From NCBI GenBank assembly GCA_030753365.1, contig JASMCJ010000008.1:928-64927 (forward strand): a stretch of 64,000 nt of DNA, given 5' to 3'. Of the stretch, positions 2,506-53,452 are shown one piece after another. Source of the stretch: Candidatus Woesearchaeota archaeon. Its GTDB lineage: Archaea > Nanobdellota > Nanobdellia > Woesearchaeales > GCA-2687795. Under the pieces are notes generated by a model, which worked only from the letters and a program-made list of their open reading frames with translations, had not been told where the DNA came from and ran no database searches. Each line of letters begins with the position of its first letter. Position 1 is the first letter of the stretch. The position numbers and the translations under genes were made by a program.

Positions 2506-4257
2506 CTAAGAGTAATACAGTTTCCCAGCACTTTTCTGCTCTCTGTCTTTGACGGAGTTGATTTTATTGATTCTTGGGCGATGGCTTGTGCCGTCTCTTC
2601 TTAGAGTGAGATTGAGCAGGGTTAGGAGGGAGTTCATGCCTTGTTCCATGGAGAAGGGGCCTTTGACCAGGCCATGTTTTGCTGGGGTTCCTTCAAATAC
2701 TAATAGTCTGTCTGATAAGTAGTCTAAGAATAATAAGTCATGGTCTACTATGATTGCTGAGATGTTTCTTTGCTCTATGATGTGTTTTATTACTTTGGAT
2801 ACTTTTAGCCTTTGTTCTACGTCAAGGTAGGCTGAGGGCTCGTCTAATAGGACAAGGTTGCAGTCTTTTGATAATGATAGGGCGATGGCTACCCTTTGGA
2901 GTTCTCCTCCTGAGAGCTGGTTGATTTGCTTTGTTAGTAAAGGCTTTATGGTTAGAGGGACTATGATTTCATTGTCATATTTCTTTATGGCATCTTTCAT
3001 GATGTTCATGACTAACTCGTTAGAGGTTGAGTCTATGTATTGAGGCTTGTAGGAGACTTTGACTTTTGTGTCAGGGCTGCCTTTGTCTGGCTTTATGACT
3101 CCTGCAAGGAGCTTGACAAAGGTGGTTTTTCCTATACCGTTTTCTCCTAGCACGCCTACTGCTTCGCCTTTGCTGACTTCGCCTGGCTCTGCTATGAGAT
3201 TGAAGTTTCCTAACTTCTTTTCCATGCTTTTCCAGCTGGTTAAAGGGTTTCGCTTTTTTTCTTTTTCTTTGGCTTTGATTTCAAATTCAATTTTTGAGTT
3301 ACGGAATCTTATGTTGTCTTCTTTTAGGAAGCCTTCAAGGTATGCGTTTATGCCGTTTTTTGTTGTTCTTGGAAGAGAGACTATTCCATAGCAGTCTTCT
3401 TTTCCGTACATGATATGGATTAGGTCTGTCATGTAGTCTAGTGCTATGAGATCGTGCTCTATTATCATGACTGAGGTGTTTTCGTCTGCTAGCACTCTTA
3501 TGAATCTTGAAACATTGAGCCTTTGCTTTATGTCAAGGTATGATGTGATTTCGTCAAAGATGTATACGTCAGCCTTTTTTAAGACTGTGGCTGCTATAGC
3601 AACTCTTTGCAATTCTCCACCGGATATGCTTTCTATTTTGCTGTTGAGTATTGGCGTTATGTCTAGCTGCTGGGCTGTTTCTTCTAGTTTGTTTTTTTCG
3701 TCTACTTTCTTTAATAGTTCTTTTACAGTGCCTTTGAATGTTTGAGGGATTAGGTCTACCTGTTGGGGCTTGTAAGAGATTTTGATGTTTTTGTCTCTTA
3801 CTTTTTCAAAGAAGGATTGGGCTTCTGTGCCTTTGAAGTATTCAATTAGCTCTTTGTGGGTTGCTGCTTTTCCTTTTTCCCCAAGGTTTGGCTTGAGCAT
3901 GCCTGCAAGGATTTTGATGGCTGTGGATTTTCCTATGCCGTTTACTCCCAGTATGCCTACTACTTTGCCGAATACTGGTATTGGAAGGCTGTAGAGTGAG
4001 AAACCGTTTACGCCGTAACGGTGGATTGGCTTTTGTTTTAGTTCTTCTGGGAGGTTTATGATTGAGATTGCTTCTATGGGGCATTTGACGCAGATGTTGC
4101 AGCCTATGCAGAGAGATTCATCTATTATTACCTTGTTGTCTGTGCCCATGGTTATGCATTCTTTGCCTGTTCTGTTTACTGGGCAGGCTTTTATGCAGAA
4201 CTTGCCAGAGCTTTCTGGCTTGCATTTCTCTTTACGGACTATTGCGATTCTTGCCAT
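2506..4257 (-). CDS. abcE1: ABCE1 / RNase L inhibitor-type ribosome recycling ATPase (twin-NBD ABC protein with N-terminal 4Fe-4S domain)
   Basis: N-terminal Cys clusters (CKPESSGKFCIKACP and CIGCNICVKCP). Two Walker A sites (GVNGIGKST, GENGIGKTT) and two LSGGELQRVAIA signatures. Length 583 aa. Confidence 0.9.
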   Translation of the reverse strand: MARIAIVRKEKCKPESSGKFCIKACPVNRTGKECITMGTDNKVIIDESLCIGCNICVKCPIEAISIINLPEELKQKPIHRYGVNGFSLYSLPIPVFGKVVGILGVNGIGKSTAIKILAGMLKPNLGEKGKAATHKELIEYFKGTEAQSFFEKVRDKNIKISYKPQQVDLIPQTFKGTVKELLKKVDEKNKLEETAQQLDITPILNSKIESISGGELQRVAIAATVLKKADVYIFDEITSYLDIKQRLNVSRFIRVLADENTSVMIIEHDLIALDYMTDLIHIMYGKEDCYGIVSLPRTTKNGINAYLEGFLKEDNIRFRNSKIEFEIKAKEKEKKRNPLTSWKSMEKKLGNFNLIAEPGEVSKGEAVGVLGENGIGKTTFVKLLAGVIKPDKGSPDTKVKVSYKPQYIDSTSNELVMNIMKDAIKKYDNEIIVPLTIKPLLTKQINQLSGGELQRVAIALSLSKDCNLVLLDEPSAYLDVEQRLKVSKVIKHIIEQRNISAIIVDHDLLFLDYLSDRLLVFEGTPAKHGLVKGPFSMEQGMNSLLTLLNLTLRRDGTSHRPRINKINSVKDREQKSAGKLYYS

Positions 4258-4293
4258 AGAAGCGTTAAAAGTAAGGGTTGTTTTTAAATGTTA

Positions 4294-5235
4294 TTAAGCA
4301 AAGAACATGATTTTCATAAAGAGGTATGAAAGGTAGAATAAAATAAGGGTTACTGCTTCAGGCTTGCCAAGTTTCATTTTCTTTTTGAAGAAGAAGATTA
4401 GGAGTAATGAGACAAAGAACCAGAATGGGATGTCAAAGAAGGTGATTACTTTGTCTACAGTGTAACCTGAGACCATTGCACCTATGCCTAATGCAAATAA
4501 AGGGTTGGTTATGTTTGAACCTATTAGTGTGCCTAATGACATGCCTGTGGAACCTTTTAGGATTGCTCGTATGGCAACTGTGAGTTCAGGCAGCGCAGTG
4601 ATTAATCCAATTATTATGCTTCCTATAAAAGAGTCTCTTACTCCCCAAAGAGCTGCTAATGTGTCTGCGTTTGTTACAACGACTTTTGCAGAATATAATA
4701 GCAGCGCTAAGCCTATGCATGTTAAGATAGAGTGCTTTAGTATGTTATCCTTAGACTTATGATGATTTCTGAATATTTTTTCGCCTTTTGTTAGGTAGAT
4801 TAGGTAGCCAATGTAAATAAAGGTTAGGATGAAGCCTTCAGTTCTTGATATTTTACCATCTAAGCACATTACAAAAAGAAGGATGATGCCAGAGAGCATT
4901 ACTATGGAGTCTATATTAAGTATTTTCTTATGGGATTTTACAAGAACCATTAGACCTATTAAGCCCATGATAAAGGTTATCTGGATTATGTTGGAGCCAA
5001 TGTTTGTGCCTATTGCTATGTTGCTTGTATCAATTCCCTTTAAGACGTCCATGCTGACTACAAGATGGGTAAAGATTTCTGGAAGAGAAGTGGCGATGGA
5101 GAGAACTGTGAGACCTATGAAGGCTTCTGTCATGTTGATGGCTTTTGCAATTTTCTGGAGGTTTATGACTGCTATGCCTGCACTTATCCAGATGCCTATT
5201 AGGCCTAACATAAGATATAATATCTGAAGGTCCAT
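4294..5235 (-). CDS. Na+/Ca2+ exchanger family (CaCA, YrbG-like) membrane protein
   Basis: Polytopic, with two alpha-repeat-like motifs (ATSLPEIFTH and ITALPELTVAI) typical of CaCA antiporters. Confidence 0.75.
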   Translation of the reverse strand: MDLQILYLMLGLIGIWISAGIAVINLQKIAKAINMTEAFIGLTVLSIATSLPEIFTHLVVSMDVLKGIDTSNIAIGTNIGSNIIQITFIMGLIGLMVLVKSHKKILNIDSIVMLSGIILLFVMCLDGKISRTEGFILTFIYIGYLIYLTKGEKIFRNHHKSKDNILKHSILTCIGLALLLYSAKVVVTNADTLAALWGVRDSFIGSIIIGLITALPELTVAIRAILKGSTGMSLGTLIGSNITNPLFALGIGAMVSGYTVDKVITFFDIPFWFFVSLLLIFFFKKKMKLGKPEAVTLILFYLSYLFMKIMFFA

Positions 5236-5282
5236 AGAGTATTGTTTTTAGGATAGAATGTATATAAAGATTGTTATTTAAT

Positions 5283-5322
5283 AAAAATCCCAATCACAGC
5301 AAGCTGTGAGGTACGAAAAAAC
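5283..5322. terminator. Terminator-like hairpin module HP1: A-tract, CCCAATCACAG-CAAG-CTGTGAGG stem-loop, then a second small hairpin AAAAACC-TTT-GGTTTTT. Member of the dispersed hairpin family.
   Basis: Stem CACAG/CTGTG with CAAG tetraloop, flanked by AAAAATCCC. Same architecture as the copies at 10715, 13601, 31921 and 53415, with compensatory stem changes. Confidence 0.45.
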
Positions 5323-5351
5323 CTTTGGTTTTTGGTATCCCTCTGGAATAT

Positions 5352-5492
5352 TGTCAAAAGTCCGTGACCACCACCAGTCAATAGACTGGTGGCATGCTCG
5401 CCCACTCAAGTGGGCTCGGGTCACTCCCTCTTGAGCACATTTTATTCCACTTTGAACCACCAGTCTAGACTGGTGGAATAAAATGTTTTAAA
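5352..5492 (+). repeat. Structured repeat core, copy 1 (~141 nt) with nested perfect palindromes; near-identical to 18823..18962
   Basis: Contains CCACCAGTC-AATA-GACTGGTGG, GCCCAC-TCAA-GTGGGC and the perfect 20 nt palindrome CCACCAGTCTAGACTGGTGG. The outer pairs GTGACC/GGTCAC and CATTTTATTCCAC/GTGGAATAAAATG compete with the inner palindrome. Matches 18823..18962 with about 3 mismatches. Confidence 0.7.
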
Positions 5493-5507
5493 CTTCATAT
5501 TTTAATC

Positions 5508-5540
5508 CAACCGTTGCAAGCAACGGGGTATTAAACCCAT
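5508..5540. other. Hairpin module HP2 (CCAACCGTTG-CAAG-CAACGGGG then TATTAAACCC), enclosed by inverted repeat ACTTCAT/ATGAAGT
   Basis: Stem CGTTG/CAACG with CAAG tetraloop followed by GGGGTATTAAACCC. Homologous to GCCGATG-CAAG-CATCGGGGTATAAAACCC in the 99 nt repeat unit. Confidence 0.4.
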
Positions 5541-5579
5541 GAAGTAATAAAAAGATTTATATAATTAATAAATTGATGA

Positions 5580-6425
5580 ATGGTTATGATTGATATTAGC
5601 GCGCTTAATATAAAACCTGAAATACTTATTAAGATAATCAGGGTTGCTGTAATGCTTGTTATTCTTGAGGTATTGTATCAGATTATTACAAAGAGTATTA
5701 AGAAAGTTTTGCTTAATAAGATTAAGAGCAAAAGACAAAGATCTAATGTTATTGTATTCTTTAATATATTAAGATATTTGTTTATATTCCTGATAATACT
5801 TATACTGATATTTACTTATACTGGCTCATGGACAGGGTTAGGGATTTCAGCAGGATTGTTGACTGCTGCATTGGGTTGGGCATTGCAAAGGCCAATTACA
5901 GGCATTGCTGCATGGATTATGGTTGTTACGAAGAAACCATTTAGTATTGGAGATAGGATTATTATTGGCTCTGTTAAGGGAGATGTGTCTGATATAACAT
6001 TGACGCATATTTATCTGAAAGAGATTGGTGGGACTGTTGGAGGAGAGGAGAGTTCAGGAAGGATAATATTGGTGCCTAATTCTGTGCTTTTTGAGCAGAA
6101 TATTGTTAATTATACGATGCAGGATGAGTTTATATTGAGCGAGGTTAGGACACTTGTGACTTATGAGTCTAATCTTGATGAGGCTGTTAAAATATGTAAG
6201 GAAGCTGCGGGAAAGGTTACAAGGGATGTTTTAAATGAAGTTCCAGAGAAACCTGTTGTAAGGACGTTTTTTAAGGATTCAGGGATTGTTGTTAAGGTGA
6301 GATTTTTTACAAAGACTGATGATAAAATAAAGGCGGAGAGTGATATTACACAAGCTATATTTGAGATGGTGAAAGAGTCTAAGAATGTTGATATTGCTTA
6401 TCCGCATATACAAATAGTTAAGTAA
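5580..6425 (+). CDS. mscS: Small-conductance mechanosensitive channel (MscS family)
   Basis: Three N-terminal TM helices followed by the MscS beta-domain region (GDRIIIGSVKGDVSDITLTHIYLKE..ILVPNS). Confidence 0.8.
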   Translation: MVMIDISALNIKPEILIKIIRVAVMLVILEVLYQIITKSIKKVLLNKIKSKRQRSNVIVFFNILRYLFIFLIILILIFTYTGSWTGLGISAGLLTAALGWALQRPITGIAAWIMVVTKKPFSIGDRIIIGSVKGDVSDITLTHIYLKEIGGTVGGEESSGRIILVPNSVLFEQNIVNYTMQDEFILSEVRTLVTYESNLDEAVKICKEAAGKVTRDVLNEVPEKPVVRTFFKDSGIVVKVRFFTKTDDKIKAESDITQAIFEMVKESKNVDIAYPHIQIVK

Positions 6426-6438
6426 AAAAGAGGTAAAA

Positions 6439-7377
6439 TTGGAATTTGTGTTCCCATTAATAACTGCTGTACTGAGCATTTTGGTTATTATGAAGTCTGC
6501 TTCTTATGCGATTAATGCTATTATAGATTATGCTAAGAAGACTGGCATTTCTGAGTATTTGATTGGGTTTTTGGTTGTTTCTATTGGTACAACGTTGCCT
6601 GATTTGTCTGCAGGGATTTTTGCGTCATTGTCTGGGCAAGGAGCTCTTATATTGGGAGATGTTATTGGTTCAAATATTCTTGATGTGACTGTTGTGTTGG
6701 GGATTGCTGCAGTGATTGCCAGAAAGGTTAAGGTTCATGGCAAGATAGTTGACAGGACGATGTTTACTACATTGTTTATGGTTTTATTGCCTTTACTACT
6801 TGGGTTAGATGGAATGATTTCAAGGCTTGATGGAATGATATTATTGACAGCTTTCCTTGTTTATTTATCGAGATTGCTTAAAAGAGAGGGTGAATTGGGA
6901 AAGGTCAAAAAGGATGTTAAGTGGAAGAATATATGGAAAGATATGTTTGTTTTTGTTGGCTCGTTGATTGCATTGCTGTTGAGCGCAAGATGGCTTGTGA
7001 TTTCCGCTTTAAGGTTGTCTTATATATTTAACATCCCTGTGTTTGTGATGGGACTTGTGTTTGTTGCTATTGGGAATACAACTCCTGAGCTTATGGTGCA
7101 GATTAAGGCTGTGATGAGTGGGCATACGACCATGGGATTTGGCAATATTCTGGGAGCGGTTGTTGCAAATTCAACGTTGGTGATTGGAATTTCTTCTATT
7201 ATAAATCCTATTCTTTTTGATAAGAAGGCTTTTATGATTCCTGCACTTTTTGCTGTGACTGCTGTGTATATTGGTATTCTGTTTATTAAGAAGAAAGAGG
7301 TTACATGGCAGGAAGGAATCGCATTGTTTTTAATATATGCTACATTCTTAGCTTCTGAGATATTCCTATTAAGATGA
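6439..7377 (+). CDS. Na+/Ca2+ exchanger family (CaCA) membrane protein, second paralog
   Basis: Alpha-repeat motifs GTTLPDLSAG and GNTTPELMVQ, about 10 TM segments. Its stop overlaps the next start (ATGA at 7374..7377). Confidence 0.75.
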   Translation: MEFVFPLITAVLSILVIMKSASYAINAIIDYAKKTGISEYLIGFLVVSIGTTLPDLSAGIFASLSGQGALILGDVIGSNILDVTVVLGIAAVIARKVKVHGKIVDRTMFTTLFMVLLPLLLGLDGMISRLDGMILLTAFLVYLSRLLKREGELGKVKKDVKWKNIWKDMFVFVGSLIALLLSARWLVISALRLSYIFNIPVFVMGLVFVAIGNTTPELMVQIKAVMSGHTTMGFGNILGAVVANSTLVIGISSIINPILFDKKAFMIPALFAVTAVYIGILFIKKKEVTWQEGIALFLIYATFLASEIFLLR

Positions 7378-8594
7378 AATTTGCGCATTTTGCTGACTGC
7401 CATATTGGATCATGGAGAGAGCCTAAGCTGAAAGAGATTAGTACAATGGCTTTTGTTAAGAGTGTTGATTTGTGTATTGAGAAGAGGGTTGATTTTGTTC
7501 TGATTGCAGGAGATTTGTTTAATACTTCATTGCCTTCTATTGATATGCTGAAGGAGACTGTTGTTAAGCTGAAGGAGCTTAAGGATAATAAGATTCCTGT
7601 GTATGTTATTGCTGGGTCGCATGATTATTCTCCTTCAGGGAAGACTATGCTGGATGTGCTTGAGAGCGCTGGATTGTTTGTTAATGTTGGGAAGGGTGAG
7701 GTTGTTGATGGCAAGATTAAATTGAATTTTACTGTTGATGAGAAGACTGGTGTTAAGATTACTGGCATGATGGGGAAGAAGGCTGGACTGGAGAGAGTGT
7801 ATTATGAGAATTTGATTAGAGAGAATCTTGAGAATGAAGAAGGGTATAAGATTTTCATGTTTCATTCTGCGATTACTGAGCTTAAGCCTAAAAGTATGGA
7901 GAAGATTGATTCCAGACCTTTGAGTTTTCTGCCTAAGAAGTTTGATTATTATGCGGGAGGGCATCCGCATTTTGTGTTTTCTGAGAAGATTGAGGGTTAT
8001 GGAACGATTGCTTATCCTGGACCGTTGTTTCCTAATAATTTTAAGGAACTTGAAGAGTTGAGCAAAGGAGGGTTTTTTATTGTTACAGATAATAATGTTG
8101 AGTGGCAGCCTGTGCAGATTTATAATACTGAACATATTAAGGTTGAGTGTGAGCATAGGAAGCCTGAAGATGTTGAAAGGGAAATTTTGGATGGTATTTC
8201 TAAGAAGGAGTTTATTAATACGATTGTTACTCTAAGATTGAGCGGGGTTTTGGAGTGTGGGAAGCCGTCTGATATTGATTTTAAGGAGATTTTTAAGAGG
8301 TTGTATGAGAAGTCTGCTTTTTTTGTTATGAAGAATACGAATGCTTTGAGCACTAAAGAGTTTGAGGAGGTTAAGGTGAGCGCTAGTTCTATAGAGGATA
8401 TTGAGGAAGATATTATTAAGGAGCATGCTGGCCAGATAGAGATTGAGGACTTTTCTCCTGAGCTGGTTACCAAAGAGCTGATGAATGTTATTAACAAGGA
8501 GAAGGATGAGGGCGAGAAGGTTGGTGATTTTGAGAAGAAGGTTAGCGATGAGGTTAAGAAGATTTTGGGTGTGGAGAAGGTGTTTGGAGGTTAA
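7374..8594 (+). CDS. Mre11/SbcD-family calcineurin-like metallophosphoesterase (putative DNA repair nuclease) with acidic C-terminal tail
   Basis: Motifs in Mre11 order: ADCHIG, AGDLFN, AGSHD, GGHPHF. N-terminus MKFAHFADCHIG resembles archaeal Mre11. No Rad50 partner is adjacent. Confidence 0.6.
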   Translation: MKFAHFADCHIGSWREPKLKEISTMAFVKSVDLCIEKRVDFVLIAGDLFNTSLPSIDMLKETVVKLKELKDNKIPVYVIAGSHDYSPSGKTMLDVLESAGLFVNVGKGEVVDGKIKLNFTVDEKTGVKITGMMGKKAGLERVYYENLIRENLENEEGYKIFMFHSAITELKPKSMEKIDSRPLSFLPKKFDYYAGGHPHFVFSEKIEGYGTIAYPGPLFPNNFKELEELSKGGFFIVTDNNVEWQPVQIYNTEHIKVECEHRKPEDVEREILDGISKKEFINTIVTLRLSGVLECGKPSDIDFKEIFKRLYEKSAFFVMKNTNALSTKEFEEVKVSASSIEDIEEDIIKEHAGQIEIEDFSPELVTKELMNVINKEKDEGEKVGDFEKKVSDEVKKILGVEKVFGG

Positions 8595-9130: not shown

Positions 9131-10042
9131 TTAGAAGTCTAACTCGTCGAAATGACCTAAATTATAGGCTTTACGGAAGGCTAAGATGACTGCCTTTATT
9201 TTAGTTTCATCATATTTAGGTCTTAACTTCTTAACTATTTTATACATAATTTCGTCTTTTTTCATAATCCTGTTTATCAGTTTCATTCTTTCAGTGATAT
9301 CTTCTCCTTTAGGTAATGATTCATCTGCCATCTCGGTAAGTGTAAGAAATATATCCTCCCCGAGTTTTCTGTATCTGCGCCTTGATTCATCTGGATGCAT
9401 TTGTTGAGCTATTTCTCTGACAAATTTCTCTTCGTCGCTTTCCAGCTCTTCTTTTACCTCTTCTTCAAGGAGAATAGCTCTTGCAATTTTCATTATGCTT
9501 GTGTGTATATGCTTATTTTCTCCAAAGAAGGATTGTTCTCTAAAAACCCTATAAAGTTCTGGTTCGCTACGAAAGATAAGTTCAAAAAGCTTAAGCAAAA
9601 GGGCTTTTGAAGGTTTTTTTCTGATCAAGTGTATTAAATGCAGTTCCGCTTTGAGAACATTAAAGATTTCGTGAAAGAGTTTTAGAAGCGTTGACTGTTT
9701 TTGTTTGACTGATAAAATTGTTTTAGATAATTTTTCAAGCTCATTCGTACTTTTTAATTGTTCCAAGTCTGCTAGAATCTCTTCATCTGTTTTTTCCTCA
9801 TTAGCAATATTAATTAACTCTGGAGAAATTAAGGATTCAAGTTCTCTCAATATTTTATCCGTAGCTTTGAAATCCTGCAAGGCATTGTCAACGTTTTTAA
9901 AATTGAAATGTTTAGATAAGTTTTCTCTTAGCTTAGAATTAGCTATGTGTTTATTCCATAAAGCCATTCGCTTATTATCATCCATGACTAACTCTTTTAC
10001 AGTGCTCTTTTTACTTCCAAAAAGATGATTTAATAAGCTCAT
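9131..10042 (-). CDS. Hypothetical alpha-helical protein
   Basis: 303 aa, Glu/Lys/Leu-rich helical composition, no recognizable catalytic motif. Confidence 0.35.
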   Translation of the reverse strand: MSLLNHLFGSKKSTVKELVMDDNKRMALWNKHIANSKLRENLSKHFNFKNVDNALQDFKATDKILRELESLISPELINIANEEKTDEEILADLEQLKSTNELEKLSKTILSVKQKQSTLLKLFHEIFNVLKAELHLIHLIRKKPSKALLLKLFELIFRSEPELYRVFREQSFFGENKHIHTSIMKIARAILLEEEVKEELESDEEKFVREIAQQMHPDESRRRYRKLGEDIFLTLTEMADESLPKGEDITERMKLINRIMKKDEIMYKIVKKLRPKYDETKIKAVILAFRKAYNLGHFDELDF

Positions 10043-10552: not shown

Positions 10553-10714
10553 GGTTAAAAGGTGTTCAATTGAGAATTATCCCTTAGGTGTACTTTTCCA
10601 AAGATATGCTCCTATACCTGCAAAAACAAGTCCAACTATTATACTGATTATTTGACTCTTAGTATCAATTAAACTTGGTAGAAGAATTGGACCAATTATA
10701 CCTACAAGAAAAAT

Positions 10715-10813
10715 AAAAAATCCCAATCGCAGCAAGCTGCGGGGTATTTTTAGTATTTAGTTTGCGTATTAAGCCGATGCAAGCATCGGGGTATAAAACC
10801 CAAACTAAATAAT
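10715..10813. repeat. 99 nt structured repeat unit (HP1-spacer-HP2), 100% identical to 31921..32018
   Basis: Sequence ATAAAAAATCCCAATCGCAG-CAAG-CTGCGGGGTATTTTTAG ... TATTTAGTTTG CGTATTAA GCCGATG-CAAG-CATCGGGGTATAAAACCC CAAACTAAATA. HP1 is followed by a T-run. HP2 is enclosed by the 11 bp inverted repeat TATTTAGTTTG/CAAACTAAATA. Confidence 0.7.
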
Positions 10814-11167
10814 CAATAAAAATAATGAATGGTTATCAGACTTTATATCACAAGATAACAAAAAAACTGATAGAGATAAAGTTATTCATTTTACTATTCT
10901 GAATCTAGGAAATTTAAATGTAAATAAAAGAGAAGGAAAAATAAGAATCATTCTAAATTTAAAAAACAAAGATCTTGTTTTAAATAAATATATGAAAAAG
11001 AAACTTGAAAATTTGAAATTGTTTCTTAATAATTCCATCAATATACTTCTTGACTCTTAATGGAAATAGGAGCTTGCGTCATATTGTCGCTCCGTTTCAC
11101 TCCGTGACTTTTCCTTGCAGAAAAAAACATATAACAACCACTTTTAAAAGGAAATCAATAGAAGAAC

Positions 11168-12583: not shown

Positions 12584-12810
12584 TTTAGGTATTCTAAATT
12601 TAAAACTGTTCTTGTTATTAAAACTTTCTTTGGAATGTAGTAAAAATAAGGATTAGAATAATAATATTTATATAACTGCAATAGTATTAAACAAGACATG
12701 GTTGATAAAAAGGAAGTGGAACGGATATTTCTAAAATTAAGGAAGATATAGCTAAAGAACTTAAGAAAGGAGCTTATAAGGCTGAGGATATAAAGAAGCA
12801 GAGAGCGCCT

Positions 12811-13596
12811 GTGTCTAAGATTATTAAGAAGGCTAAGTCTGCACCAAAGAGGATGAATAGCAATTTTATTAAAACAGGGATTCATGGCCTGGATGGTTTG
12901 ATGGATAAGGGGATTCCAAAAGGGACTGCTAATCTTGTTTGCGGTGGTCCAGGCTCTGGCAAGACTATATTGGGATTGCAGACTTTAAATTATGCTGCAA
13001 GCAAGGGGCAAAAATGCATTTATATGACTTTTGAGGAGTCTGAGGATAGGTTAAGAAAGCATATGAGGGATTTTGGATGGAGCCCTGAAAAGCTTGAGAA
13101 GAAAGGTTTATTGGTTATAAAGAGATATGACCCTTTTGCTGTTACAAGACAGGTGGAAGCTTTGCTGGAGAAGGCTAAGGGAGAATTGCTTATTGATGTT
13201 AACCCAATTTTGTTTCCTAAGGGATTTAAGCCTGACAGAGTGGTTGTTGACAGCTTGTCTGCTATTTCTGCGGCGTTTGTTGGCAAGGAAGAGACTTACA
13301 GGATATATATTGAGCAGTTGTTCAGGCTGCTTGAAAATATTGGAGCTACTTCTTTTTTGATTACTGAGTCTACTGATATTCCTACTAAGCTTACAGAGTC
13401 TGGTGTTGAAGAGTTCCTGGCAGATGGTGTTATTATTGTGTATAATGTGCAGAGAGGGAATACAAGGGAGTCTGCTATTGAAATTTTGAAGCTGAGAGGA
13501 GCTTCGTTTCAGAAGAAAATTGTTGCAATGCAGATACAAGGAAAGAAAGGTATTGTTGTTTATCCTGAGCATGAAGTTTTTGGAGGAATTCAGTAA
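12811..13596 (+). CDS. KaiC-like / RadA-paralog RecA-superfamily ATPase. GTG start at 12811; an ATG at 12853 is an alternative.
   Basis: GIHGLDGLMDKGIPKG..CGGPGSGKT Walker A and a KaiC-like single-domain layout, 261 aa. Confidence 0.65.
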   Translation: MSKIIKKAKSAPKRMNSNFIKTGIHGLDGLMDKGIPKGTANLVCGGPGSGKTILGLQTLNYAASKGQKCIYMTFEESEDRLRKHMRDFGWSPEKLEKKGLLVIKRYDPFAVTRQVEALLEKAKGELLIDVNPILFPKGFKPDRVVVDSLSAISAAFVGKEETYRIYIEQLFRLLENIGATSFLITESTDIPTKLTESGVEEFLADGVIIVYNVQRGNTRESAIEILKLRGASFQKKIVAMQIQGKKGIVVYPEHEVFGGIQ

Positions 13597-13600
13597 AGCG

Positions 13601-13652
13601 GAAAATCCTAAAAATCGCTATCCCCACAGCAAGCTGTGAGGTATTGAACCCA
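13601..13652. terminator. Bidirectional terminator-like hairpin (family member) at a convergent gene junction
   Basis: AAAATCCTAAAAATCGCTATCCCCACAG-CAAG-CTGTGAGGTATTGAACCC; stem CACAG/CTGTG. Lies between the 3' ends of the KaiC-like gene (+) and a membrane protein gene (-). Confidence 0.45.
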
Positions 13653-13665
13653 AGTTGTAATAATT

Positions 13666-14268
13666 CTAGATATGGTATTCAAATCTTATAATAGGCTTTA
13701 TGTTTTTGATGTTGTACCATATTAAGAATATAATCACACTTGTCATTGTGCCTAGTACAAGGGCTGTTAAGGAGAAGTTTAGGACATAAGGCATGATTTC
13801 TTTTTTACCAGAAGCAAGAAGGAACATGGTGAAGGGTATTGAGGCTGCTGATAGGCCTGCTCCCAGTATGACTGATAAAGGTATGTTTTTGAATTCTATG
13901 GTGAACAGTAGAGAGATTAGTTCAAAGACGAGCCCTGCTGCTGTTAGTATGATGACTTTGTTCCAGCCAAGGCCGCCAAAGTTGCTTATGTCAGAAGTGG
14001 CTAAGGCTCCTAAGAAGCTGAATATTAGTATGGCCCCGGGCCTGTTGATGAGTAAGGCTATGAATGCCATGAATGCGATTGTTAGTGCTAAGGATAACAT
14101 GAAGGTTAATGTGGTGTCTGACAGGCTGATGAAGTAGGTGAGAGTGGACCATAACAAGACTAGGATGATGACCGCTAATAGGTCAATCTTCCTTAAGCGC
14201 TTGAAGTTAGGGAATAACTGCTTGCTCTTTTTAGAGGTTTCTGGCTTGGTTTCTTTTTTCTTTTTCAT
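13666..14268 (-). CDS. Polytopic membrane protein (hypothetical); last gene of the MinD-containing operon
   Basis: 200 aa, Lys-rich N-terminal tail then 5-6 TM helices. Confidence 0.4.
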   Translation of the reverse strand: MKKKKETKPETSKKSKQLFPNFKRLRKIDLLAVIILVLLWSTLTYFISLSDTTLTFMLSLALTIAFMAFIALLINRPGAILIFSFLGALATSDISNFGGLGWNKVIILTAAGLVFELISLLFTIEFKNIPLSVILGAGLSAASIPFTMFLLASGKKEIMPYVLNFSLTALVLGTMTSVIIFLIWYNIKNIKPIIRFEYHI

Positions 14269-14272
14269 GGTA

Positions 14273-15349
14273 TTAAATGAGCCTCTTTAACTTTGAAAGT
14301 TTGTGAAGCCTTGCCTGAATTACAGGCAGTTTGTGTTTTATTTGCATTAAGCCTTCTTTGTATTTGTCTACTTTGACATCATAGGTGTGTTTTGGGAGGA
14401 TGCCTTTAGAGTAATAGTCAGACTGGGCTTTTACCATTAAATCTTCCAAAACTTTTTTCTCAATGGTGGTTTCTTTCACTTTGTCTTTTAGCAGTTTGAC
14501 CATGAACCTGTTATAGAATATGAAGGTTATAATGGATAAGATTATGATTAAAGCTATGAGCCATTTGTAGTATTGTTTTATAAAACTGAAGGTGGTTTCT
14601 GTGCCTGCTTTGTAGATTGCTTTTAGTACTGTGTTTTCTGCTTTGATTTTGCTTATTAAAGGACCTATTTCTGCAAGCAATGATTCTGCTTCTTCGTATC
14701 TTTCATCTTTAAATTCGGTTTCTGCTTCTGAGAAGATGCTATAAAGAGGGGAAACGTTTAATCTTAATTCTTCTATTTCTTTTATTCTCATTTCTGAGAC
14801 TTTGAAATTGTCTCTTAGTTCGTATGCTCGGAGTTTTCTTTCGTTTATTGACTGAGTTTTTTCTAGAACGGTTTTGTAGTCCACTGGGATGCCTATCTTT
14901 TCCTGAGCTTCTGCTAGTAGAATTCTTGCTTTTTCTCTTTTCTCAGTGTTGTTTATTGTTTCTATTTGTTCTAATAGAGAAGTGTAATCTTCCCCTTTAA
15001 AGTAGCTTTTGGCTTCTATTAGGGTGTCGTTTACCCAGGTTATGCTGAAGCCTTGTTCCTGCATTTCCTGCATGTCTGACTCTGCCTGAAGAATGGCGTT
15101 GAAGGCTAGTTCCTGACTGATGTTTTCAAGAGTGAGAGTATCATAATCTATTGCAGAAGGCTTGTCTTCAAAGATTCTTAGGTCTGAGATTATGTTGCCT
15201 GTTATTGAGGCAGAAGGGATTTGTATTTGGGCTATGTTTGCTGATAAAAATGTTAGTAGAACTATACATAATGCTAATATGCTAAAGCATATTGTGTACA
15301 TTTCAGCTTCCTGTTCTATGTCCAAAGTTTTCTTTTTTCTTTTAGTCAT
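14273..15349 (-). CDS. Bitopic coiled-coil protein (N-terminal signal-anchor, long extracytoplasmic coiled-coil, C-terminal TM plus cytoplasmic tail)
   Basis: 358 aa. Hydrophobic segments at aa ~18-38 and ~268-290 with heptad-rich Glu/Lys sequence between. Its start overlaps the MinD stop. Confidence 0.45.
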   Translation of the reverse strand: MTKRKKKTLDIEQEAEMYTICFSILALCIVLLTFLSANIAQIQIPSASITGNIISDLRIFEDKPSAIDYDTLTLENISQELAFNAILQAESDMQEMQEQGFSITWVNDTLIEAKSYFKGEDYTSLLEQIETINNTEKREKARILLAEAQEKIGIPVDYKTVLEKTQSINERKLRAYELRDNFKVSEMRIKEIEELRLNVSPLYSIFSEAETEFKDERYEEAESLLAEIGPLISKIKAENTVLKAIYKAGTETTFSFIKQYYKWLIALIIILSIITFIFYNRFMVKLLKDKVKETTIEKKVLEDLMVKAQSDYYSKGILPKHTYDVKVDKYKEGLMQIKHKLPVIQARLHKLSKLKRLI

Positions 15350-18822: not shown

Positions 18823-18962
18823 TGTCAAAAGTCCGTGACCACCACCAGTCAATAGACTGGTAGCATGCTCGCCCACTCAAGTGGGCTCGGGTCACTCCCT
18901 CTTGAGCACATTTTATTCCACTTTGAACCACCAATCTAGACTGGTGGAATAAAATGTTTTAA
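18823..18962 (+). repeat. Structured repeat core, copy 2 (near-identical to 5352..5492). Its 3' end supplies the last 8 codons and the stop of the DHH gene on the opposite strand.
   Basis: Same ~140 nt as copy 1, with G to A (GACTGGTAGC) and G to A (CCACCAATCTAGA) changes that break two palindromes. Overlaps 18936..18962 of CDS 18936..20024. Confidence 0.7.
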
Positions 18963-20024
18963 CAGTTTGATAAATTTTTCAAAATCCTTTGTCTTTACGC
19001 AGATACCGCAGGCATGCTCATGGCCTCCGCCATAACCTTCTACACTTTTAAATAATTCTTCAACTATAGGAGGAAGTATTATTTTAGTGGACCTTAGGCT
19101 GCATTTGACTTCTCCGCTTTTTTCCCTTCCGATTAGAACGACTTTGTCTGGAAAGAGGTAGATTAGCTCATTACTTAGGTCTGAGGTAAAAGAATTCCTG
19201 TTACTATAAATGTATGAAAGGAGTTTTTTACTTTTTTGGCTTGCTTGTTTTATGATTTTTAATAATTCCTGGTACTGCTGATTTACTTTTTGATATTTTT
19301 TGTAGATATACTTACCTTGAGGAGAGGTTTGCTCTAAGATTTCATCAGGATGTTTTATTCTTGTAATAACTTTGATACAGCTCATTGCTTCGTAGGAGTT
19401 TCCTTTTAAGATGAATGAGAAGATTCTTACTAATGTTCCTAGTTTGGTGGTGAATAATGCATCCTGAGGAGTTTTTATTTTTTCAGGGATTAAAGAAGGG
19501 TATGCTTTTTGAAATTCTGGAAGAAAATCTGGAAGTGTCCAGTCCCCTACGGTTCCAGTCATTGCTATCCATATGTCCTGTTTTACTACATTGTAGCAGA
19601 TTGATGAGACTGGTGAGTTGTCTTTAGGATCTTGTACCCGTGGATTGTAATAATCACAGTTTCTGTAAGGCTCTTTTGGAGGAGGATGGTGGTCTATTAT
19701 GACTACTTTTGATTTTATGCCATCTATGAAGTCCTGGCTTATTGTGGGCTTGTCAAGCACGAAGACTATGTCTGGCTGGTATTCGTCTACTTTTCTTAAC
19801 ATATCAGGCCCAAGTTCAGGGAAGGATTTGATGATTATTCCTTTTCCATCTCCTACAAACCGGTAGAACTGCAGGAAAGAGCATACACCATCAGGATCGT
19901 CATGGAAGAAGATTAATGGGTTTTTGTGCTCTTCCAATTCTTTTCTGATTTTTTTTAGTTGTGATGATGGTAACATTTTAGATTTTGTCAAATTCTGGTT
20001 TCCAAGAGATATTAGCTTTTTCAA
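18936..20024 (-). CDS. DHH/DHHA1-family phosphoesterase (NrnA/RecJ-like). The true start is probably the internal Met at ~19976 (MLPSSQ..), which abuts the HD gene stop.
   Basis: DHH motif VIIDHHPPP, Asp-rich N-terminal motifs (FFHDDPDGV), DHHA1 motif GGGHEHACG near the C-terminus. Confidence 0.7.
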   Translation of the reverse strand: MKKLISLGNQNLTKSKMLPSSQLKKIRKELEEHKNPLIFFHDDPDGVCSFLQFYRFVGDGKGIIIKSFPELGPDMLRKVDEYQPDIVFVLDKPTISQDFIDGIKSKVVIIDHHPPPKEPYRNCDYYNPRVQDPKDNSPVSSICYNVVKQDIWIAMTGTVGDWTLPDFLPEFQKAYPSLIPEKIKTPQDALFTTKLGTLVRIFSFILKGNSYEAMSCIKVITRIKHPDEILEQTSPQGKYIYKKYQKVNQQYQELLKIIKQASQKSKKLLSYIYSNRNSFTSDLSNELIYLFPDKVVLIGREKSGEVKCSLRSTKIILPPIVEELFKSVEGYGGGHEHACGICVKTKDFEKFIKLLKHFIPPV

Positions 20025-31843: not shown

Positions 31844-31920
31844 TTTTTGCCTCCTTGAATTCGTTTGTTTTTAGTGTATTATATTATATGTGGTTATAAT
31901 AACCTTTTGATTATAATAAT

Positions 31921-32018
31921 AAAAAATCCCAATCGCAGCAAGCTGCGGGGTATTTTTAGTATTTAGTTTGCGTATTAAGCCGATGCAAGCATCGGGGTAT
32001 AAAACCCAAACTAAATAA
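31921..32018. repeat. 99 nt structured repeat unit, identical to 10715..10813; serves as the terminator region of the pentapeptide gene
   Basis: 100% identity to copy at 10715. On the minus strand the HP1 hairpin is followed by ATTTTTT immediately 3' of the stop at 32019. Confidence 0.7.
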
Positions 32019-32684
32019 TTAATATCCTGCCTGATAATAATTGCTTGGTCCTAGCCCATTATTACCCAAGAGAGGTCTTAAAGGATCAAATCCTCCGTAA
32101 AACATATATCCTTTTGGTTTTCTGCTATTTTCCTTTGTTGGAATTCCAAAGTAATTTATATTTACAGCATAAAGATTAGCGCTTCCTGTTATATTTGCCT
32201 GTCCAATATTTTGAACTTTGTACATGTTAGAACCTGAAAGATTTGTTTGCGATAAATAAGATCCGCCAAGATTTGAATATGCAAGGTTCGAGTTAGATAA
32301 ATTAGCTCCTCTAAAATCAGAGTTGCTTAAATTAACTCCACTAAAATCAACGCCTGACAGGTTTTTATTCCTGAAATTTGCTCCTTTTAACTCAACCTTT
32401 TCTTCTCTTCTCCTTGAAATGAAGTTGTTCCACAATTCCTTGTTCTCTGTTATGAATGAAACTAAACTCTCTATATCTCCTTCATTAATAAGGCTGATAA
32501 GCTCAACCAATGACTGCTTTTCTGGAATATCATTAAAGTTTTTATTTTGTGCGGTACCTTCCTCAAAATAAACCTCTGAAGTTTCATTATTCTTCTGGTC
32601 TGTTCGTTTCTTCTTCAATTTCACATTTGCAAGAGCCATCTTTACAACCACATACTTTACAGACTTTTTTACCTGCAAAATCAA
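32019..32684 (-). CDS. Pentapeptide-repeat protein (start possibly at the internal Met at ~32639)
   Basis: Tandem A(D/N)LSxx pentapeptide repeats (GANFRNKNLSGVDFSGVNLSNSDFRGANLSNSNLAYSNL). Confidence 0.65.
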   Translation of the reverse strand: MILQVKKSVKYVVVKMALANVKLKKKRTDQKNNETSEVYFEEGTAQNKNFNDIPEKQSLVELISLINEGDIESLVSFITENKELWNNFISRRREEKVELKGANFRNKNLSGVDFSGVNLSNSDFRGANLSNSNLAYSNLGGSYLSQTNLSGSNMYKVQNIGQANITGSANLYAVNINYFGIPTKENSRKPKGYMFYGGFDPLRPLLGNNGLGPSNYYQAGY

Positions 32685-42410: not shown

Positions 42411-42827
42411 ATGCAGTATGTACCAAAAGAAGAGAATAAGGAAGAGGTTTTAAAAGAGCACCAACATAGAGAGGATAATTTAAGGCTGGATAAAGAAAAG
42501 GCTGCTAAGAAAAAAAAAGGAGTGATTATTATTGCTCTGGTATTCTTTTCAGTCATTGCTGCTGTGGTTACCTATGGATTGCTTTCACCTGGAAGGTATG
42601 ATAACTTTGCAAAGTGCCTTACAGAGAAAGGTGCTGTTATGTATGGAGAGGATTGGTGCCAGTATACAAACGCGCAAAAGAATATGTTTGGAAAGTCTTT
42701 CAAATATATTCATTATGAAGTAAATGAGAATCTTAATAAAAGACCTACATGGGTTATTAATGGGAAGAGTTATGAGACTGTGCAGTCTTTTGAAAGATTG
42801 GCTTCATTAACAGGATGTGAAATTTGA
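42411..42827 (+). CDS. Membrane-anchored thioredoxin-fold protein with monothiol CxxT motif (paralog of 45406..45774)
   Basis: YDNFAKCLTEKGAVMYGEDWCQYTNAQKNMFG aligns with YDSFAQCLTEKGVKMYGGYWCPHCANQKDMFG of the downstream paralog. The active site reads WCQYT here and WCPHC there. Confidence 0.5.
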   Translation: MQYVPKEENKEEVLKEHQHREDNLRLDKEKAAKKKKGVIIIALVFFSVIAAVVTYGLLSPGRYDNFAKCLTEKGAVMYGEDWCQYTNAQKNMFGKSFKYIHYEVNENLNKRPTWVINGKSYETVQSFERLASLTGCEI

Positions 42828-45409: not shown

Positions 45410-45774
45410 GATGGTTAAAGATGAATATTAAACAAATATTAGGAATTGTTTTGATTTGTTCAGTCTTGGTTATGGTTGGATGCTCAAGCATTAATTATGA
45501 TAGTTTTGCACAATGCCTTACAGAGAAAGGTGTTAAGATGTATGGGGGATATTGGTGTCCGCATTGCGCTAACCAAAAGGATATGTTTGGAAATTCTTTT
45601 GGTTATGTGAATTATATTGAATGTTCGCTTCCTAATAGAGAAGGAAAAACAGAAATATGTATAGAAGAGGATATAAAAGTTTATCCTACATGGGAGTTTG
45701 CAGACGGAAGCAGGAAAGAAAGAGTACATTCATTGGAACAATTGAGCGCGTTTAGCGGATGTAGCATAGAATAA
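45406..45774 (+). CDS. Membrane-anchored/secreted thioredoxin-like protein (WCPHC active site)
   Basis: 122 aa; N-terminal hydrophobic anchor, WCPHC, thioredoxin-fold spacing. Confidence 0.7.
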   Translation: MRWLKMNIKQILGIVLICSVLVMVGCSSINYDSFAQCLTEKGVKMYGGYWCPHCANQKDMFGNSFGYVNYIECSLPNREGKTEICIEEDIKVYPTWEFADGSRKERVHSLEQLSAFSGCSIE

Positions 45775-52391: not shown

Positions 52392-53417
52392 TTGGAAAAA
52401 GATATATTTTTAAAATACGCTAGGTTTACAAATCTTAAGATGAAAAAGTATGATGTTTATGCAATTGGTAATGCATTGATGGATGTTTATACTAAAGTGG
52501 AGAATGAGAAATTAGTAGAGATTAATCTAAAGAAAGGGGATATGCATCTTGTTGATGAGGAACAGTCAAAAAGGTTTTTTGAAGGTGTTAAAGATAATAT
52601 ATTAAAGACTGGGCCTGGTGGCTCTTCTGTGAATGTTGCTGCTGGTGTTGCTATGTTAGGTGGTAGTGTAGCGTTCTGCGGGGTTGTAGGAAATGATGAA
52701 CAAGGTAGAATGTTTGAGGATATCCTTGTTAAAGAGGGAGTTATTGCTAACCTTGCTAAGAGCAGCAAGATGACTGGGAATGTTATTTCGTTTATTACAG
52801 ACGATAGTGAGAGGACATTTGCAACTCATCTGGGGGCGGCTCTCGAGCTGAAGAAGGAAGATGTTAGTGAAGAGGATATTATCGCAAGTAAGGTTCTTCA
52901 TATAGAGGCATATCAATTGGAGGATCCTAAGCTTAAAGAGGTTTGTTTTCATGCAATGGATGTTGCTAAGAGTAATGGTGTTAAAGTTTCTATTGATTTG
53001 AGCGACCCTGCATTGATTATGAGGAATCTTGAAGAGTTTAAGAAGGTTGTTAAGGATTATGCAGATATTGTTTTTGCTAATGAGGAAGAGGCTAAGGCGT
53101 TTACTGGTTTAGAGCCTGAAGAGGCATTGCATAAGATTGCTGAGGATGCTGAGGATGCTGTTGTTAAGTTGGGGAGCAAAGGTTCTATTATTAAGAATGG
53201 AGAAGATGTTTTTAAGATTGAGGCTGTTGAAGCTAATGCTATTGATACTACTGGGGCAGGTGATAGTTTTGCTGCAGGGTTCCTTTATGGATTTTGCAAT
53301 GAGTTGGGGATAGAAAAGTCAGGGAAGCTTGGCTCTTTTCTTGGAAGCAAGGTTGTGGAAGAGATTGGCACAAGGATTGAACAAGATGTTAAAGAGGAGA
53401 TTGAGCAATTAAAATAA
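52392..53417 (+). CDS. PfkB-family carbohydrate/nucleoside kinase (ribokinase superfamily)
   Basis: N-terminal GG motif region and C-terminal DTTGAGDSFAAGFLYG anion-hole motif. Confidence 0.75.
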   Translation: MEKDIFLKYARFTNLKMKKYDVYAIGNALMDVYTKVENEKLVEINLKKGDMHLVDEEQSKRFFEGVKDNILKTGPGGSSVNVAAGVAMLGGSVAFCGVVGNDEQGRMFEDILVKEGVIANLAKSSKMTGNVISFITDDSERTFATHLGAALELKKEDVSEEDIIASKVLHIEAYQLEDPKLKEVCFHAMDVAKSNGVKVSIDLSDPALIMRNLEEFKKVVKDYADIVFANEEEAKAFTGLEPEEALHKIAEDAEDAVVKLGSKGSIIKNGEDVFKIEAVEANAIDTTGAGDSFAAGFLYGFCNELGIEKSGKLGSFLGSKVVEEIGTRIEQDVKEEIEQLK

Positions 53418-53452
53418 AAATCCCAACCATCCAAAAGGATGGGGTATTTTTA
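53415..53452. terminator. Terminator-like hairpin (family member) immediately after the PfkB kinase stop
   Basis: AAAATAAAAATCCCAACCATCC-AAAA-GGATGGGGTATTTTTAGT; stem CCATCC/GGATGG then T-run. Shares the GGGGTATTTTTAGT tail with the 99 nt unit. Confidence 0.5.

Follow-up and report, generated by a model that had tools for sequence, protein, structure and literature searches.

A nested composite repeat in a Woesearchaeota genome points to two families of gene-less hairpin transposable elements in Nanoarchaeia

A stretch of 64,000 nucleotides from a Candidatus Woesearchaeota archaeon (assembly GCA_030753365.1, contig JASMCJ010000008.1, positions 928 to 64,927 of the forward strand; hereafter the window) carries, at positions 5280-5550, a structured intergenic repeat that we call the composite. 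We found that it is a copy of one repeat, element U, interrupted by a nested insertion that consists mostly of a second repeat, element C. U is a two-hairpin repeat of ~105 nt, in which AAAAATCCCAAYC-hairpin-GGGGTAT is followed by a T-run with AA and by a second hairpin-GGGGTAT inside a covarying stem. C-type elements are gene-less, 70-165 nt long and made of two tandem long hairpins. The description that suits U and C best is that of two families of transposable elements of Nanoarchaeia, built of hairpins and free of genes, that have not been reported before; our literature searches on mobile elements and intergenic repeats of Woesearchaeota/DPANN returned no account of either. We consider it fairly probable that both are non-autonomous mobile DNA elements and that U is moved in trans by peel-and-paste transposition of the IS200/IS605 type, a mechanism that we infer from features of the repeats themselves.

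The composite can be read, on the plus strand, as the parts of an interrupted U. Its 5' module (5280..5313) opens with AATAAAAATCCCAA (5280-5293) and continues into the first hairpin, HP1, with stems TCACAGC (5294-5300) and GCTGTGA (5303-5309) around a loop readable as AA or CAAG, and then GGTAC. The sequence after HP1 reads GAGGTA in place of the GGGGTAT of the family, two substitutions that adjoin the insertion point. Next come a 38-nt piece, CGAAAAAACCTTTGGTTTTTGGTATCCCTCTGGAATAT (5314..5351), which forms the left part of the insertion, and a 134-nt copy of C (copy 1, 5352..5485). The following TTTTAA (5486..5491) is U's own linker between HP1 and the arm of stem P3, and at the same time the target motif beside which C inserted. 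In the 3' module (5492..5545), the P3 arms ACTTCAT (5492-5498) and ATGAAGT (5539-5545) enclose the second hairpin, HP2, whose stems CCGTTGC (5511-5517) and GCAACGG (5520-5526) flank a loop AA and overlap GGGGTATTAAACCC (5525-5538). The 3' module thus contains GGGGTAT at 5525-5531, a guide-like base X (T) at 5532 and ACCC at 5535-5538. The tail AATAA (5546..5550) bears an A-T-N-A motif that abuts the 3' end of U and whose N (A, 5549) is complementary to X, giving a TAM-like motif TTAT on the opposite strand (TAM, transposon-adjacent motif). The preliminary description had recognized that the composite shares the frame of a 99-nt unit found elsewhere in the window, with HP1 followed by HP2 inside a local inverted repeat, and this frame, the GGGGTATWAAACCC tail included, held, with coordinates agreeing to within a few bases.

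Because the window derives from a compact, A/T-rich archaeal genome (~36% G+C) reconstructed from metagenomes, mis-joins at repeats are conceivable. A chimeric assembly, or low-complexity A/T-rich hairpins that happen to stand side by side, is nevertheless an extremely improbable explanation of the composite, since the identical 344-nt intergenic region is present in six independent metagenome assemblies from different samples. Moreover, motif counts lie far above shuffled expectation: GCAAGCNNNGGGGTAT has 7 true matches in the window as compared to 0.73 expected, and GGGGTATWWAACCC has 4 as compared to 0.71. R1, a covariance model whose source units came from other genomes, matches both halves of the composite, at 5280-5418 (33.8 bits, E=1e-5) and at 5449-5552 (48.9 bits, E=2e-9), and the region folds with a z-score of -7.4.

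The nested insertion is seen directly in comparison with L113, a metagenome contig that is 87-96% identical to the window across shared genes (~90% overall), and 90-94% in the genes on either side of the composite, the Na/Ca-exchanger and MscS genes in both. At the orthologous site, L113 carries an uninterrupted U, to which the 5' module of the composite aligns base for base. The L113 unit reads ...CACAGCAAGCTGTGGGGTAT/TTTTAAACTTCAT...CCGTTGCAAGCAACGGAGTATTAAACCCATGAAGTAATAA, the slash marking the point at which the window has 172 nt extra (5314-5485), and its empty junction is GGGGTAT/TTTTAAACTTCAT. Both the 38-nt piece and C are missing from this allele, and the TTTTAA linker is present. An insertion in the window lineage is the parsimonious direction, given that L113 has the consensus form of the family and that the insert exists elsewhere independently; the 172 nt would have entered the T-run linker of U just after HP1. 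The preliminary description had named nested insertion as one of two readings, and the uninterrupted L113 unit, the core standing alone at 18823 and a parallel case in an unrelated Woesearchaeon (L064, see below) support it directly. Its anatomy of the insert, in contrast, needs revision: in place of a 140-nt core plus ~60 nt of flank, the insertion comprises 38 nt followed by the 134-nt C. The 140-nt core itself (5352-5491) does recur with 99% identity at 18823-18962, but only its first 134 nt belong to C, the last 6 nt being the TTTTAA linker of U.

C-type elements share a two-domain architecture, with domain 1 closed by (G)TCAARAnn.../...nnTYTTGA(G/C) and the domain 2 hairpin extending to the other end. 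In copy 1, the pairings TCAAAAG../..CTCTTGA and GTGACC/GGTCAC close the long hairpin of domain 1 (5352 to ~5436), which has CCACCAGTC-AATA-GACTGGTGG and GCCCAC-TCAA-GTGGGC in its interior, and the hairpin of domain 2 (5437-5486) reads ACATTTTATTCCAC ... GTGGAATAAAATGT. C-type elements whose closing stems covary were found in L064, L059, L027, L070, L008, L113 and L024; the GTGACC/GGTCAC stem of the window is replaced by AGAAAATCCGACC/GGTCGGATTTTCT in L027, GTCAAAAGTTCGC/GTGAACTTTTGAC in L064 and TCAAAAACTCC/GGAGTTTTTGA in L070. The second copy in the window (18823..18956, plus strand, 99% identical to copy 1) is followed by TTTTAA (18957-18962) and sits between convergent genes. The minus-strand open reading frame (ORF) 18936-20024 ends inside it, its last ~6 codons and stop codon being supplied by C. 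In the related contig L114 (77-87% identical), the orthologous site lacks this copy and reads TTTTAAC instead; the insertion has rewritten the C-terminus of the encoded protein relative to L114.

C is a second family of similar style to U that targets the U linker. In L064, a contig of this unrelated Woesearchaeon (CAZQZJ01), the resident U is interrupted within its T6 run by a 160-nt C-type element, as TTT/element/TTT, with no bases gained or lost, no scar and no duplication. Further cases of C-type elements in the U linker occur in L070 and L008/L065, so that the T-run/TTTAA linker of U is occupied in at least four genomes, and 9 of 10 sites have TTT(T)AA or TTTTGA adjoining domain 2. As a separate observation, L113 carries (reverse strand, ~129-198) a 68-nt C-type mini element, GTCAAGAACTAC...GTGGTTCTTGAGCATGCTCA...GACATG/TTAAG, between the ABCE1 and exchanger genes; the matching 36-nt gap of the window (4258-4293) is without it. 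The 38-nt piece that precedes C in the composite is missing from C copy 2, and a search of the window and of ~0.9 Mb of related loci gave no second copy. It contains a small hairpin, AAAAACC (5317-5323)/GGTTTTT (5327-5333), followed by GGTAT-CCC-..-AAT, and looks like a degenerate HP2-type module. One possible origin is that it represents flank captured along with C; flank capture through use of an alternative boundary has been reported for IS200/IS605 elements (Meers et al., 2023; PMC10055086).

We next consider U as a family. A scan of one genome per species with the pattern AAAAATCCCAAYC-N8-20-GGGGTAT retrieved at least 106 loci, ~95% of which come from Woesearchaeota, Pacearchaeota, Nanoarchaeota/Nanoarchaeia and similarly labelled metagenome-assembled genomes (MAGs), with about ten being bacterial chance matches without a hairpin. 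R1 recovered at least 103 U copies in 100 loci from ~60 MAGs (Woese-, Pace- and Nanoarchaeia); viral contigs scanned for the HP1 frame gave 0 matches. Features outside the search pattern recur as well, namely the loop CAAG or CAGAG, the linker TTTTT(T)AA, the second hairpin followed by GGGGTAT-nnn-ACCCA, the P3 stem around it and the tail AAT-N-A. The family alignment and covariation analysis that the preliminary description had proposed showed that the helices of HP1, HP2 and the enclosing repeat all covary. Pairing holds in 98.2% of cells of the HP1 and HP2 stems, with both sides changed in ten pairs; none of 500 shuffles reached the observed pairing, and no slid register came close. The P3 arms are complementary over 9.9 bp in cognate pairs as compared to 5.4 bp in non-cognate pairs. 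Their sequences differ among genomes (CTCAAACTGGG/CCCAGTTTGAG, TCTTGCTTG/CAAGCAAGA, TATTTAGTTTG/CAAACTAAATA and the ACTTCAT/ATGAAGT of the composite) while remaining complementary, exactly the different sequence and same geometry that had been noted for the window. The lengths of the A-run and T-run of U covary, too.

Strong compensatory covariation in all helices, very low folding energy, an architecture kept across many genomes and a C fold that retains its two domains with covarying closing stems are what one would look for in a functional structured non-coding RNA family, with U and the composite as short and long isoforms and the core as an optional RNA domain. We regard this second reading of the preliminary description as very unlikely. 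There is no conserved promoter-like sequence upstream of the copies, which occur in every orientation relative to neighbouring genes, and mismatches in the stems are split evenly between G.T (12) and A.C (12), giving no sign of selection on one transcribed strand. The core is separately mobile, standing alone at 18823 and being polymorphic between relatives, and the tandem and reciprocal nesting described below is typical of mobile DNA. Finally, an internal base that covaries with a pre-existing base of the target flank is not expected of an RNA fold. The whole window gave 0 matches to Rfam 15 at gathering thresholds, and searches of 5200-5620 and 10650-10880 with E up to 10 returned chance-level matches only. 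A tRNA/tmRNA scan, which tested for tRNA halves and tRNA-like elements, found none.

Two intact U copies are present in the window. Copy A (10713..10817, plus strand, R1 100.4 bits, tail AATCAA) is the 99-nt unit of the preliminary description, and copy B (31919..32023, plus strand, R1 100 bits, tail AATTAA) lies between two minus-strand genes; the reported repetition is real, 10709-10818 and 31915-32024 being 98% identical. In addition, R1 and motif matches identify a solo HP2-type module, CACAGCAAGCTGTGAGGTAT-TGA-ACCCAAGTTGT-AATAA (13607..13655, plus strand), directly 3' of the stop codon of gene 12811-13596, and R1 finds an HP1-type module of a second subfamily (..GGGGTATTTTTAGTGTTCCAAATACCC; 53413..53450, plus strand, 38.8 bits) that overlaps the stop codon of gene 52392-53417. 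This subfamily is also found in L043, L070 and L094. A walk of 9 kb past the window revealed no more U or C copies. In general, U copies are near-identical inside one genome and divergent among genomes. Two observations on the U-bearing genomes may be added. In L100, the same tRNA 3' end (..GGTTCGAATCCTGTCGTCTGCAG) stands immediately before both of two minus-strand copies (314-419 and 1870-1975), as if a block of tRNA plus U had been duplicated. Furthermore, MAGs labelled 'uncultured Methanosarcinales archaeon' (e.g. CAZQZJ01, CAYHVV01, CAZNUS01) share repeat families with Woesearchaeota MAGs and have housekeeping genes typical of DPANN-type loci; the record label is probably wrong.

The boundaries of U were revealed by nesting in the opposite sense. 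Flank BLAST among 8-kb loci detected no classical empty U site; instead, at three genomic sites in CAZQZJ01 (L015, L059, L106), U lies inside a reverse-oriented C-type element, exactly between ...CCATTCGGGA and GTCAAAAGTTC..., a junction that is uninterrupted in L064. Reading the reverse complement of L064 gives CCATTCGGGA/GTCAAAAG, and L059 gives CCATTCGGGA[U]GTCAAAAG, so that U is placed precisely between GGGA and GTCAAAAG, without duplication or loss. U accordingly extends from (A)ATAAAAAATCCC to ...CCCATTTGAGA(A). Terminal inverted repeats are lacking, the 5' end ATAAAAAATCCC being unrelated to the reverse complement of the 3' end TTCTCAAATGGG, and U inserts without target-site duplication next to a scarless uninterrupted counterpart in L064. 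HP1 and HP2 are direct and on the same strand, each being followed by GGGGTAT on the plus strand, which means that ATACCCC precedes each hairpin on the other strand.

A motif A-T-N-A, mostly ATCA, abuts the HP2 end only, and does so after almost every unit. We assign it to the flank and not to the element on three grounds. First, the GTCA that follows U in the nested cases pre-exists in C as target sequence. Second, U copies of a single lineage diverge right after A-T-N-A, and two otherwise identical window copies differ at N. Third, in a tandem pair in L069 the first U ends ...GAGGA, the second U follows directly and a single ATCA occurs only after the second, an arrangement expected if a new copy integrates between the resident copy and its target motif. 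N is related to X, the base after the GGGGTAT of HP2: of 32 non-redundant sites, 26 have complementary bases at the two positions (permutation p<5e-5), with G matched to C at 14/14, T to A at 5/5 and C to G at 7/11 sites; under a looser pattern the count is 47 of 70. Within the arm lineage ACCCAGTTAAGA, X switches among C, G and T and N follows, representing independent co-changes. Viewed on the opposite strand, a 4-nt T-X-A-T stands immediately 5' of U and pairs with a 3-nt sequence beside the first hairpin.

These properties resemble those of the IS200/IS605 insertion sequences. Elements of this group, which are moved by the HUH enzyme TnpA, have subterminal hairpins on one strand, a TAM that abuts the left end and pairs with a left-end DNA guide, covarying mutations in guide and TAM/TEM (TEM, transposon-encoded motif), no target duplication and scarless donor joints, and their gene-less derivatives, the palindrome-associated transposable elements (PATEs), are mobilized in trans (Meers et al., 2023; PMC10055086). 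With moderate confidence, we place U among the gene-less elements of the IS200/IS605/PATE kind. In the mechanism that we propose, a Y1 transposase of the HUH type, supplied in trans, would carry out single-strand transposition. On the strand complementary to the plus strand of the window, the HP2 end would be the left end and the HP1 end the right end, and U would integrate immediately 3' of a 4-nt T-X-A-T (TGAT/TGAC in most copies, TTAT in the composite), the target being recognized by base pairing with a 3-nt DNA guide beside the left-end hairpin. The long-range stems P1 and P3 may fold the strand such that its termini meet at the central linker. U and C would use each other as landing sites, with the TTTTTAA linker of U as the preferred target of C and the GTCA at the start of C domain 1 as a target for U. 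C shares the general properties of U, but how it moves is less certain. It is scarless in the L064 T6 run; the TTT(T)AA or TTTTGA motif adjoins domain 2 at 9 of 10 sites but stands on the other side in L008/L065, and the set of C copies is small for an analysis of guide pairing.

Several observations weigh against this assignment. The TAM/guide pairing spans only 3 bp and ~20% of sites disagree with it; the guide is positioned 6 nt from the variable stem and not directly at its foot. The right-end candidate, TTT after the GGGGTA of HP1 with AAA at the 5' end, cannot be told apart from ordinary P1 pairing. Within one U the two hairpins have different stems, whereas IS608 carries near-identical hairpins at its ends. 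In the window, all five U loci and both C copies lie on the plus strand with monotonic cumulative GC skew, but in relatives the orientation of U shows no link to local GC skew (39 vs 35). Since AAAAATCCCAAYC and GGGGTAT were part of the search pattern, their universality among the retrieved loci is partly ascertainment. For C, the exceptional small element in L008/L065 has TTTAAA at its other side, and the 38-nt piece at 5314-5351 falls outside C as defined by copy 2. Finally, no Y1 HUH transposase, TnpB or other transposase was seen beside U or C in the window, in the ~0.9 Mb of U-containing loci or in 9 kb beyond the window, a sample of only ~1% of each genome, such that this negative neither supports nor refutes the model. 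Window genes lack transposase Pfam marks, and an HUH/Y motif scan of small ORFs in the ~0.9 Mb had its sole match in the chance bacterial locus L061. The protein families recurrent near units are housekeeping only (glycosyltransferase, nucleotidyltransferase, Fic, AAA ATPase, NifS-like, pyruvate:ferredoxin oxidoreductase, aIF2, threonyl-tRNA synthetase, MscS), and no full-length U with gene cargo between HP1 and HP2 was found.

The same observations bear on other duplication-free, target-specific mechanisms that might mobilize U and C, such as those of IS110/IS1111-type elements, IS91/Helitron-like rolling-circle elements or tyrosine/serine recombinases. Recombinases of the IS110/IS1111 type are known to target repetitive extragenic palindrome (REP) and attC hairpins, and insertion in our case is precise and site-specific into hairpin repeats, without terminal inverted repeats or target-site duplication. 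The absence of a Y1 transposase from the sampled loci would also suit such a mechanism, as would two details of the junctions: the left-end hairpin of C begins at the boundary itself, unlike in IS608, and the U-in-C crossover is ambiguous by 1 nt, beside a shared TCA(A). We nonetheless judge this unlikely, as none of those enzymes was found in the sampled loci either, the termini differ from those of Helitron (TC...CTRR) and IS91 (GTTC/CTTG), and single-strand TAM/guide complementarity together with same-strand hairpins bearing the same heptamer are specific predictions of the IS200/IS605 model. A bolder version of the transposition model, which we hold to be doubtful, is that U and C form a lineage-wide gene-less, DNA-guide-bearing system of Nanoarchaeia whose mobilizing enzyme is no recognizable TnpA. 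This enzyme could be an HUH-like or replication-associated host enzyme of a new type, or a domesticated one.

The positions of U relative to genes raise the question of whether it is primarily a host cis-element, a bidirectional terminator or 3'-untranslated-region stabilizer that selection maintains and recombination or gene conversion spreads, with the insert being incidental. HP1 is flanked by A5-6 and T5-6, providing oligo-T termination signals on both strands, and one HP1 was flagged by a promoter/terminator scan of bacterial type, albeit with bacterial models applied to an archaeal host. A co-oriented upstream gene is present for 44 of 73 units, its stop codon often overlapping the first bases of the unit (window 13607, 53413). 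Against this, the 53 classifiable units are distributed over tandem-sense (17), convergent (15), tandem-antisense (11) and divergent (10) contexts; the divergent units, the composite included, have nothing to terminate, and those between tandem genes in antisense (e.g. 31919) fit no better. Neither HP2, P3 nor the TAM/guide covariation has a role in termination, and near-identity within genomes together with precise presence/absence points to transposition. We therefore consider a primary cis-acting role quite unlikely. It is compatible with later exaptation of a mobile element; termination may well be a side effect, and any terminator or regulatory effect of the A-run/hairpin/T-run of U would be secondary. 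The label 'terminator-like' given to HP1 in the preliminary description is accordingly apt as to resemblance but not as to position, the composite lying between divergent promoters and not after a gene.

Among known systems, PATEs offer the closest list of likenesses. They were first named in the archaeon Haloquadratum and are also present in Geobacillus. Like U, they are short and gene-less, lack terminal inverted repeats and target-site duplications, have a hairpin near each end on the same strand and a fixed 4-5-nt TAM at one end only, show covariation of this TAM with an internal guide beside a hairpin, leave scarless empty sites and insert in tandem at a re-used TAM. The commonest TAM observed here (TTGAT/TGAT) we take to be the same as that of ISDra2, which we treat as a lead only. 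Unlike PATEs, U has no identified TnpA/TnpB partner, its two hairpin stems differ within one element, the extra long-range stems P1 and P3 surround the hairpins, TACCCC separates the guide from the variable stem, the frame is common to many Nanoarchaeia genera and not species-specific, and no omega-RNA-like part is evident. REPs of Proteobacteria, with their bacterial interspersed mosaic elements (BIMEs) and REP-associated tyrosine transposases (RAYTs), are comparable as high-copy intergenic hairpins with a conserved hairpin-foot motif and variable stems, often located at gene ends, forming composite units and serving as landing sites for other insertion elements. They are thought to derive from IS200/IS605 ends and, to our knowledge, occur in bacteria only. 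Membership of U in the REP/RAYT group was rejected: REPs are hairpins of 20-40 nt with a 5' GTAG that form inverted pairs (BIMEs or REP doublets, REPINs), whereas U has direct hairpins and no GTAG, and the ORF motif scan of ~0.9 Mb yielded no RAYT-like gene.

The composite, with its fixed frame and optional module, also recalls enterobacterial repetitive intergenic consensus (ERIC) sequences, which have internal ~70-nt insertion variants, pneumococcal BOX elements (A-Bn-C) and the Correia elements of Neisseria; strong secondary structure, intergenic location and possible transcript effects are common to these and U. They possess terminal inverted repeats, and Correia elements a TA duplication, neither of which is seen in U, and the optional module of the composite is mobile in its own right, as its further copies and empty sites show. 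The use of one repeat as a landing pad, as U serves for C, has parallels in IS1397 and ISKpn1 (REP loops) and in the IS1111/IS110 group (REP or attC). Those hairpin-targeting insertion sequences are full-length and encode a transposase, whereas C measures 70-165 nt and its nesting with U is reciprocal.

Further candidates were discarded. A classical miniature inverted-repeat element (Tc1/mariner-, IS630- or piggyBac-like) does not apply, as U and C have no flanking duplication and TTTAA stands on one side only. An archaeal bulge-helix-bulge intron, in which a 4-bp helix separates the two 3-nt bulges that hold the boundaries, was rejected on inspection of the L064 and window junctions, where no helix joins GGGGTAT/TTTAATC with the C ends. 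By inspection, the defining motifs or geometry of CRISPR repeats, C/D or H/ACA small RNAs, K-turns, integron attC sites and origin recognition boxes are absent, and so are those of a piggyBac-like TTAA element. An apparent indel between L135 and L136 proved to be a run of Ns. C is not alone in interrupting U: other small structured inserts split units in L055 (870-1056), L110 (4183-4322), L069 (5918-6072), L080 (6770-6931) and L042 (797-1010), and the L076 unit carries a different small insert as well. They hit U at varied points, including the HP2 loop, the position after the GGGGTA of HP2 and the interior of a long P1 variant. Further families of tiny insertion elements thus exist in these genomes.

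As to its setting, the composite occupies the 344-nt gap separating the divergent genes for a Na/Ca exchanger (4294-5235, minus strand) and an MscS channel (5580-6425, plus strand). TATA-like boxes can be read on either side of it, at 5261-5268 and 5556-5563, and may function as promoters. Other genes of the window encode ABCE1 (2506-4257), an Mre11-type phosphoesterase (7374-8594), GatB/GatE-type subunits and RadA, and U and C repeats together make up ~1% of its length. The window sequence is also present in several Joint Genome Institute metagenomes, one TARA Oceans scaffold and NCBI assembly GCA_030754675.1. An identical 12-nt string, ATGAATGGTTAT, occurs at 5576-5589, overlapping the MscS start, and at 10826-10839, in both cases shortly downstream of a repeat (the composite and the 10713 unit); the match may be fortuitous or left over from a common flank.

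Comparison with L113 revealed differences beyond the composite. Two window segments are absent from L113: 9076-10121, which holds a 303-aa ORF (9131-10042), and 12586-15334, which holds a KaiC-like gene (12811-13596), the solo module at 13607 and ORFs in 13666-15349. The 10713 unit of the window lies between the dCMP deaminase and GatB genes, and L113 has ~1 kb of unrelated minus-strand coding sequence in its place. Because the orthologous region is replaced by unrelated genes, this unit gives no clean empty site. The differing segments are strain-variable islands beside repeats. GC skew (G over C, plus strand) is positive in 30 of 32 2-kb bins regardless of gene orientation, and its cumulative curve climbs almost monotonically. 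This might mean that a single replichore spans the window, or that strand asymmetry in the genome is unusual. Positions 1-2056 encode a large secreted-type protein with tandem 198-nt repeats specifying CDGxDxDCDG (Cu-binding MopE-like) motifs, the repeat number of which varies among assemblies (736, 779, 790 aa). Paralogous gene segments at 42597-42716 and 45496-45615, 2899 nt apart and 78-79% identical, and a further internal duplication at 43860/44184 are signs that genes of a thioredoxin-like cluster duplicated locally.

DPANN archaea have very small genomes whose mobile DNA is almost uncharted, and U and C add two abundant, mutually nested repeat families to it. The covariation of guide and TAM in U is a concrete, testable handle on IS200/IS605-type transposition in these organisms. 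Being located at gene ends and promoters, the elements account for strain-level indels and rewritten gene 3' ends, as exemplified by C copy 2, and they are likely break points in MAG assembly. Should the mobilizing enzyme indeed be no recognizable TnpA, the 3-nt guide/TAM code would constitute a natural, re-programmable single-stranded DNA targeting device in some of the smallest cellular genomes known, and the elements might double as terminators or genome-architecture signals.

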